From: Escherichia phage vB_EcoM_G2133
DNA: 64,000 nt
Direction: 5' to 3' (one strand)
Sequence record: MK327928.1
The first letter of the stretch is position 1, and the number at the start of each line of letters is the position of its first letter. A program made the position numbers and the translations under genes. Shown one piece after another: positions 40,550 to 41,005 of this stretch. The notes below the pieces were generated by a model. That model worked only from the letters and a program-made list of their open reading frames with translations. It searched no databases and was not told the DNA's origin.

Positions 40550-41005
40550 TTATTTTAAATCATCTGCCCAATCGAGTTTAAGAGGCTCTTTGTATTCACG
40601 ATCTAATACGACCGGAATTTGTACATCACCGCTAAATGATAAGGGCCCAACATTATAAGACAATGTTATATGCGGTGTGTAATCATCAAAATCATGTGTA
40701 GCACCTAGTGCCCGCGCATACATGTGTCGACAGCGCAGATATTCAGAATCTAGCACAAGTACAAGAGTCGATCCATCTTGTGTTTTCCATACTTCTAAAT
40801 GTCCAGAAGAAGCTACTTCAAAACTTCCGCTTGATGGAACATACGGAACATTTACTCTTGAATAACATATGGTCGAATGAATTTTTTCTCTAGGAACTGG
40901 ATTAGGAACACGTAAAGAGCGCTGAAGTTCTTCCAGCGCATCAAGTGTTAATTCTGAAAACTTAGCTGCTACATAAAGACCCGTTGAAAAGTCTTTAAAT
41001 TCCAT
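40550..41005 (-). CDS. 57B: 57B: 2H-phosphoesterase-fold protein (anti-CBASS Acb1 family in T4)
   Basis: 151 aa; two H-x-T/S-x motifs (HSTICYS, HITLSY) typical of 2H phosphoesterases; position upstream of 57A. Confidence 0.7.

Follow-up and report, generated by a model that had tools for sequence, protein, structure and literature searches.

Identification and sequence conservation of acb1

The open reading frame (ORF) located at positions 40550..41005 of a 64,000-nt stretch of the genome of Escherichia phage vB_EcoM_G2133 (MK327928.1; the whole stretch is called the window below) is almost certainly acb1, i.e., gene 57B of a T4-like phage belonging to the genus Tequatrovirus. Since its product is identical to the Acb1 protein of phage T4, which degrades the signals of CBASS (an antiphage signalling system based on cyclic oligonucleotides), the same mechanism can be assigned to it with near certainty. 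All 151 residues were found to match those of T4 gp57B/Acb1 (NP_049750.1, residues 2-152), and the four nucleotide differences between the two genes are all synonymous. A first-pass annotation made from the sequence alone had presented this ORF as 57B, an Acb1-type 2H phosphoesterase, and T4 57B as Acb1; both statements agree with the data presented here and with the literature (PMC9117128), and the ORF coordinates and the two motifs given were correct, apart from the strand, which was not mentioned. The features of the gene are as follows, residue numbers in the window protein being those of T4 minus 1:

40550..41005, minus strand: coding sequence of acb1 (gene 57B), taken from the ORF listing, with an ATG start, 151 amino acids and a TAA stop within the coordinates
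40871..40879, minus strand: first catalytic dyad, H43-S44-T45 (H44/T46 in T4), codons CAT TCG ACC
40664..40672, minus strand: second catalytic dyad, H112-I113-T114 (H113/T115 in T4), codons CAT ATA ACA
40553..40576, minus strand: C-terminal lid LDWADDLK, residues 144-151 (145-152 in T4), including W146 (W147 in T4), the same as in T4

The Pfam family PF23474 (Acb1) matches residues 8-149 of the protein over the full length of the profile (1-144 of 144), with an E-value of 2.6e-60 and a score of 202.7 bits as compared with a cut-off of 27, and the crystal structure of the Acb1 of Erwinia phage FBB1 (7T26) shows 68% identity over residues 8-148 (E = 4e-62). The alignment with 9Q2G, the second solved Acb1 and a divergent one, is weaker and spans both motifs. 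No NCBIfam match was obtained for this protein, nor for the products of the two genes lying downstream, Ip5 and Ip6. Homologs of acb1 were identified by tblastn in 1470 phage records, 498 of which carry a protein at least 99% identical; most of these records are Straboviridae of Escherichia, Klebsiella, Shigella, Acinetobacter, Vibrio, and Aeromonas. Since the 68% identity with the FBB1 protein extends over the whole chain, the acb1 product can be inferred to have the compact 2H phosphoesterase fold of 7T26.

The first motif, H-S-T-I-C-Y-S, consists of residues 43-49 (nt 40859..40879, minus strand) and the second, H-I-T-L-S-Y, of residues 112-117 (nt 40655..40672, minus strand). The first-pass annotation had called this a tandem signature: both motifs are indeed present, but as they are 69 residues apart, they form a pair but not, strictly speaking, a tandem. 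When the protein was shuffled 200,000 times, at least two H-x-[ST] motifs occurred in 17% of the shuffled sequences, at least two H-x-T motifs in 2%, and at least two H-x-T motifs with hydrophobic flanks in 0.08%. The motif pair on its own is thus weak evidence, and it is the homology (the identity with T4, the Pfam Acb1 match and the invariance of the catalytic tetrad) that places the pair beyond chance and makes the observation solid.

The conservation of the functional residues was analyzed in an alignment of 12 sequences, comprising the window protein, that of T4, the two solved Acb1 proteins and those of phages of Klebsiella, Serratia, Acinetobacter, Citrobacter, Vibrio, and Salicola and of one Krischvirus, the identity with the window protein ranging from 27 to 100%. 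H43, T45, H112, and T114 are invariant in all 12 sequences, including the one with only 27% identity, so that the second histidine motif, the lack of conservation of which would have refuted the first-pass annotation, is conserved. All nine of the residues to which a function has been attributed (positions 11, 43, 45, 73, 106, 112, 114, 140, and 146) are present in the window protein: besides the tetrad, they include the stacking aromatic residues Y11, W73, F106, and W146 (Y12, W74, F107, and W147 in T4) and E140 (E141 in T4), which reads adenine. Y11 is invariant throughout the alignment; position 73 is occupied by W or F and position 106 by F or Y, with H in one sequence, while position 140 is E in nine of the ten sequences reaching that far. 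The gene structure, the identity of the gene, its family membership and the presence and conservation of the functional residues are direct observations.

The window protein and T4 Acb1 have in common the same 151 residues, including the catalytic and ligand-contacting ones, the flanking gene 1 and gene 57A, and the promoter-like and hairpin-forming sequence of the 3' intergenic region. The resemblance with the FBB1 enzyme lies in the whole-chain identity, the HxT/HxT tetrad, the lid tryptophan and the glutamate; the FBB1 protein differs in having F and Y in place of the W73 and F106 shared by T4 and the window, and the host genus is not the same. With the other members of the 2H superfamily (LigT/2'-5' RNA ligase, cyclic phosphodiesterases (CPDase) and viral 2'-5'-oligoadenylate phosphodiesterases), Acb1 shares the two H-x-T/S motifs and a metal-independent acid-base chemistry proceeding via a 2',3'-cyclic phosphate.

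Predicted mechanism and anti-CBASS function

T4 57B was discovered by activity-guided fractionation as the enzyme degrading 3'3'-cGAMP (cyclic GMP-AMP) in infected cells (Hobbs et al., Nature 2022; PMC9117128), so that neither Acb1 itself nor its adjacency to the internal-protein locus is a new finding. The structures of FBB1 Acb1 were solved in the apo form (7T26) and with 3'3'-cGAMP (7T27); in the Acb1 structures, Y12, W74, F107, and W147 stack on the bases, E141 reads the N6 of adenine, the C-terminal lid (145-152) closes over the ligand and the tetrad H44, T46, H113, and T115 lies over the scissile phosphate (PMC9117128). Cleavage is metal-independent and occurs 3' of adenosine via a cyclic phosphate; the substrates of the T4 enzyme include 3'3'-cGAMP, cUA, cAAA, and cAAG, whereas cGG and cA4 resist cleavage, as does the 2'-5' bond of 3'2'-cGAMP, and both the H44A mutant and the H44A/H113A double mutant are inactive (PMC9117128). 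T4 Acb1 lacking residues 145-152 fails to activate the Panoptes defense system, which led the authors to infer that the lid is needed for catalysis (bioRxiv 10.1101/2025.08.21.671373). In vivo, Acb1 blocks the activation of CBASS effectors, and T4 without acb1 shows a more than 300-fold defect, which is restricted to CBASS-positive hosts, growth being normal in the absence of CBASS (PMC9117128).

What is expected of the window protein in terms of activity, mechanism and phenotype in vivo is transferred from this literature, which deals with the identical T4 protein. Acb1 would capture a cyclic di- or trinucleotide in its U-shaped pocket, where Y11, W73, F106, and W146 would stack on the bases and E140 would read the N6 of adenine, and the lid (residues 144-151) would then close over the captured ligand. 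The two H-x-T dyads (H43/T45 and H112/T114) would perform acid-base catalysis without any metal: the 2'-OH of adenosine is predicted to attack the 3'-5' bond, so that a cyclic phosphate would form first as an intermediate, followed by a linear product with a 3'-phosphate. With the loss of 3'3'-cGAMP, cUA, cAAA, and cAAG, the CBASS effectors would stay off and the phage would be spared abortive infection.

Since acb2 is also intact in this phage (see below), resistance to many CBASS systems is to be predicted. With an intact acb1, the phage is also expected to be sensitive to decoy-signal systems such as Panoptes, which makes the gene both an asset and a liability, and this point is relevant to the choice of T4-like phages for therapeutic purposes.

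Alternative explanations

That the ORF and its motif pair might be chance features of AT-rich phage DNA has a negligible probability: the bare H-x-[ST] pair does turn up in 17% of the protein shuffles, as mentioned above, but homologs exist in 1470 phage records, all the differences from T4 are synonymous, the Pfam match covers the full length and the motifs do not vary across the whole range of identities, and these homology data already refute the idea. The name under which the gene usually goes deserves more attention. The family phrog_755 is described in PHROGs as "RNA ligase," and most phage records, including the RefSeq record of T4, label 57B "RNA ligase" or "hypothetical protein," which is where a corrected annotation would be of value. 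According to this label, the product would be a LigT-like 2'-5' RNA ligase or an RNA-repair cyclic phosphodiesterase acting on the broken tRNAs of the neighboring tRNA cluster, which lies 1.9 kb from acb1. The two H-x-T motifs are compatible with this idea, but they occur superfamily-wide and do not discriminate. PF13563 (2_5_RNA_ligase2) reaches only E = 0.11 and 13 bits, the cut-off being 27, over residues 80-122 only; apart from this family and Acb1, no 2H family, PF02834 included, was detected in Pfam at E <= 10, and the NCBIfam search was likewise without a match. Unlike the LigT-type proteins, Acb1 has a C-terminal lid, and its substrate is a cyclic oligonucleotide immune signal and not an RNA end. 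The identical T4 protein was found experimentally to be a cyclic-oligonucleotide phosphodiesterase, a ligand-bound structure exists for the 68% identical homolog, and the deletion phenotype is specific to CBASS, T4 without acb1 being normal where CBASS is absent (PMC9117128). An RNA ligase or RNA-repair function is therefore very improbable, and the "RNA ligase" label was rejected in view of the lack of any significant LigT-type profile match and the biochemistry of the T4 protein.

A more substantial alternative is that the acb1 product may be a broad scavenger of cyclic oligonucleotides rather than a dedicated anti-CBASS protein, its value and its cost arising from several host pathways: it would remove the signals c-di-AMP (cyclic di-AMP) and cA3 (type III CRISPR), and would expose the phage to Panoptes-type decoys firing upon degradation of 2'3'-c-di-AMP. 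T4 Acb1 does degrade both 2'3'- and 3'3'-c-di-AMP, the expression of Acb1 alone triggers Panoptes toxicity while that of the H44A/H113A mutant does not, and a naturally Panoptes-resistant T4-like phage carries a nonsense mutation in acb1 (PMC12657230). The T4 enzyme was also among the most promiscuous of the viral 2H phosphodiesterases tested (bioRxiv 10.1101/2025.08.21.671373), Hobbs et al. suggested that Acb1 may help to evade cAAA-based type III CRISPR (PMC9117128), and in phage BYEP02, acb1 is split by an internal duplication of 77 nt. On the other hand, cA4 is not cleaved (PMC9117128), the disruption in BYEP02 could have arisen in the assembly, and the only loss-of-function phenotype harming the phage is that observed on CBASS hosts (PMC9117128). 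As the enzyme and the chemistry are the same in both cases, a broad scavenging role, which we regard as possible but distinctly less than probable, would refine the identification of the protein as Acb1 without replacing it.

Nothing of substance was found against this identification. The points weighing against the overall picture are that the single-sequence AlphaFold2 model of the product has a mean pLDDT (predicted local distance difference test) of only 37.8 and is uninformative about the fold; that the extra N-terminal methionine annotated in T4 is absent from the window protein, the upstream ATG having become ATA; and that the putative regulatory signals are no more frequent than expected: the T4 late-promoter consensus TATAAATA is not enriched in the window (11 occurrences as compared with 11.05 expected), and the sigma-70-like sites between 39300 and 42700 show no excess (17 vs. 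14.3 expected from shuffles).

Two plus-strand ORFs lying within acb1 (40708..40893 and 40722..40865) were considered and discarded, being artefacts on the strand antisense to a conserved gene.

In the BYEP02 record (Escherichia phage, OR757454.1; positions 301-833 of the compared stretch), the 77-nt duplication is a tandem one that takes in the region of the first HxT motif; a premature TAG results from it, and acb1 is annotated as two ORFs. Either the allele has lost its function naturally, as in the mutants escaping Panoptes, or the assembly is at fault, the record being only 154.7 kb long.

Upstream genes, start codon and expression

The features upstream of acb1 are as follows:

41005..41247, minus strand: gene 57A, encoding the tail-fibre assembly chaperone (Pfam GP57, E = 6.6e-49; 96% identical to T4 57A)
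41603..41610, minus strand: candidate T4 late promoter matching the consensus TATAAATA, within gene 1 and upstream of 57A and acb1, proposed from its position alone

The TAA stop of 57A overlaps the ATG of acb1 (TAATG; the sequence of the junction is AATAATGG), and the stop of gene 1 overlaps the start of 57A in the same way. Because of these overlaps, 57A and acb1 are probably co-transcribed and translationally coupled. The order gene 1, 57A, 57B, IP (internal-protein gene) is conserved as in T4 among the phages compared (T4, RB32, and a51). An annotated tail-fibre chaperone gene is also present upstream of 57B in the Serratia phage 4S and in the phages MIZ6 and Miller, and 57B of KPN6 is likewise abutted by a gene, which is unnamed.

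At the junction between the two genes (41003-41008), the window reads ATAATGG, where 57A ends in TAA, whereas T4 reads ATGATGG, where 57A ends in TGA. The TAA stop removes the upstream in-frame ATG, so that the window gene is one codon, and its product one residue, shorter than in the T4 annotation; RB32 has the same sequence and the same length as the window. This comparison suggests that the second ATG may be the functional start of 57B, in which case the published residue numbers would be one too high for such phages.

The expression of T4 57B has been reported to be middle/late, and its activity appears about 15 min into infection (PMC9117128). The site at 41603..41610 fits both the reported timing and this onset, and a late promoter within gene 1 might drive the joint transcription of 57A and acb1. 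Since the sigma-70-like sites and TATAAATA both occur at chance level, the promoter assignments are all tentative. Between 39300 and 42700, one terminator-like site was found as compared with 2.0 expected from shuffles, and acb1 has no intrinsic terminator downstream.

Internal-protein genes downstream of acb1

The 1.1-kb segment 39912..41005 consists of acb1 followed by Ip5 and Ip6, both of which carry the capsid-targeting leader MKT[FY]xEF:

40220..40477, minus strand: Ip5, internal (injected) head protein with the leader MKTFKEF, occupying the place of T4 ipI (phrog_3499, E = 1.2e-49)
39912..40145, minus strand: Ip6 (ipVI), internal protein of 77 amino acids with the leader MKTYQEF (phrog_8111, matching residues 15-91 of a longer ORF)

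Ip5 is 100% identical to the Ip5 of RB32, which is annotated "replaces ipI," and only a 26-residue N-terminal stretch containing the leader aligns with T4 IPI. In the case of Ip6, the mechanically defined ORF extends from a GTG to 40187, but the homologs start at the ATG of 39912..40145; 100% identical genes occur in many T-even phages, in which they are annotated ip6, ipVI, or internal virion protein, and the alignment with T4 IPI shows only the invariant residues of the leader in common. Searches in Pfam, NCBIfam and the PDB sequences yielded no relative of Ip5, and the same searches yielded none of Ip6. No homolog of T4 ipI or of T4 trna.3 was found in the window.

The resemblance with the ipI/57B island of T4 thus consists of an acb1 gene directly followed by genes encoding injected internal proteins with a capsid-targeting leader; the difference is that ipI lies downstream of 57B in T4, whereas the cassette here consists of Ip5 and then Ip6, neither of which is like T4 IPI beyond the leader. 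The first-pass annotation had placed an IP cluster directly beside 57B and had described the 1.1-kb stretch as a compact counter-defense island. The anatomy is as it had stated, although the IP genes involved are not those of T4, and that the stretch functions as a counter-defense island can only be inferred. Nor is the idea new, since Hobbs et al. made the same point about acb1 and the adjoining ipI, calling the pair an anti-defense island (PMC9117128).

The linkage between acb1 and IP genes, which is present in T4, RB32, and a51, is absent in the six more distant phages compared (Serratia 4S, Krischvirus MIZ6, Acinetobacter Acj9, Klebsiella KPN6, Vibrio PVA8, and Salicola SCTP-2), where the gene downstream of 57B has no leader. 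Together with the chaperone gene found upstream of 57B in distant phages, this shows that the more broadly conserved linkage of acb1 is that with a morphogenesis gene and that only in the Tequatrovirus group does it adjoin IP genes.

In T4, the proteins Ip1, Ip2, and Ip3 are inhibitors, each acting specifically on a single type IV restriction enzyme of the GmrSD family (PMC12373910). Targets are given in that paper for Ip1-3 of T4 only, without any mention of Ip5, and no target was found for Ip5 or Ip6. The IP locus of T-even phages was described as polymorphic by Repoila et al. (1994), as cited in PMC12373910. In the light of these data, Ip5, Ip6, and a paralog of Ip5 located at 32732..33013 might be injected inhibitors, each specific to a GmrSD variant to which it has not yet been matched, and they might be swapped among T-even phages by recombination at the 71-nt repeats described below; the 39.9-41.0 kb region would then be a true two-layer module with acb1 as its fixed anchor. 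We put this proposal forward tentatively, giving it somewhat less than an even chance. If it holds, anti-restriction at the time of injection and anti-CBASS activity later on would both be provided by this single module.

The Ip5 paralog is encoded by an ORF of 93 amino acids (32732..33013, minus strand) with the leader MKTYSEF; it resembles Ip5 over its full length (48% identity, E = 1e-24, phrog_3499), sits between denV and the lysozyme gene e, and matches none of the T4 genes compared. Homologs of ipII and ipIII are located at 31009..31931, so that the phage has five leader-bearing internal-protein genes at two loci. In the region 31009-33498, denV (32262-32672) lies between ipIII and e, whereas T4 denV is on the other side of ipII/ipIII.

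Direct repeats at the gene ends

Three direct repeats of about 71 nt (family D1) occur at the 3' ends of acb1 and of the two IP genes:

40495..40565, minus strand: copy 1, spanning the end of acb1 (DDLK and the stop) and an intergenic promoter-like sequence, GTTTACA-17-TACTAT
40165..40235, minus strand: copy 2, at the 3' end of Ip5 (EDLK and the stop) and upstream of Ip6, with a promoter-like site at 40206..40178
39869..39939, minus strand: copy 3 (61% identity), at the 3' end of Ip6 and upstream of a trna.4 homolog

The repeat core GTGATACTATTA was found exactly three times in the window, as compared with 0.56 matches expected when one mismatch is allowed. Copy 1, the sequence of which is conserved in T4, overlaps the lid-coding 3' end of acb1; its promoter-like site (40536..40508) has an extended TG, and a 13-bp hairpin covers the -10 element. 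The sigma-70-like GTTTACA-17-TACTAT is present in each copy, those of copies 1 and 2 having been detected by the scan and that of copy 3 read from the sequence, and a hairpin of 12-13 bp covers the -10 element in all three. The predicted folding energies of the RNA are -14.8 kcal/mol (z = -2.8) in copy 1, -19.4 kcal/mol (z = -5.4) in copy 2 and -16.1 kcal/mol (z = -4.2) in copy 3. The stems differ among the copies and yet remain complementary (GAUGAGGUA/UAUCUCAUC, AUAGGGU/ACCCUAU, and GAUGGGGUA/UACCCUAUC). The IP cassettes may have their recombination boundary in this repeat, or it may act on the RNA as a 3'-end or processing element, or both. In the RB32 annotation, a 43-bp direct repeat flanks Ip7/Ip9.

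Wider genome context

The window does not come from T4 itself: the best matches of its 6-kb and 24-kb segments are with other Tequatrovirus phages, at about 95-97.6% identity, and the neighbor of 57B is not the one present in T4. A second anti-CBASS gene was identified at some distance from acb1:

29180..29446, minus strand: acb2 (vs.4), encoding a cyclic-nucleotide sponge (tblastn with T4 Vs.4, 88/88 residues identical)

The T4 gene vs.4 is the one encoding Acb2 (PMC12657230). As acb2 lies 11 kb from acb1 and outside the acb1 locus, the two anti-CBASS genes do not form a cluster.

Eight tRNA genes (Lys, Arg, Met(CAT), Thr, Ser, Pro, Gly, and Leu) were detected by ARAGORN at 37105-38655 on the minus strand. 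This set differs from the cluster annotated in T4, no Gln gene having been found by ARAGORN, and the call for tRNA-Lys (37105-37198) is unusually long, at 94 nt. A segB homolog, 83% identical to that of T4, is located between tRNA-Arg and tRNA-Met, and an HNH endonuclease gene directly follows tRNA-Leu. The HNH gene (38662-39294) and a mobB-like homing endonuclease gene (42659-43333), both on the minus strand, are two homing-type endonuclease genes flanking the acb1 region; the mobB-like one lies between genes 3 and 2, where T4 has none.

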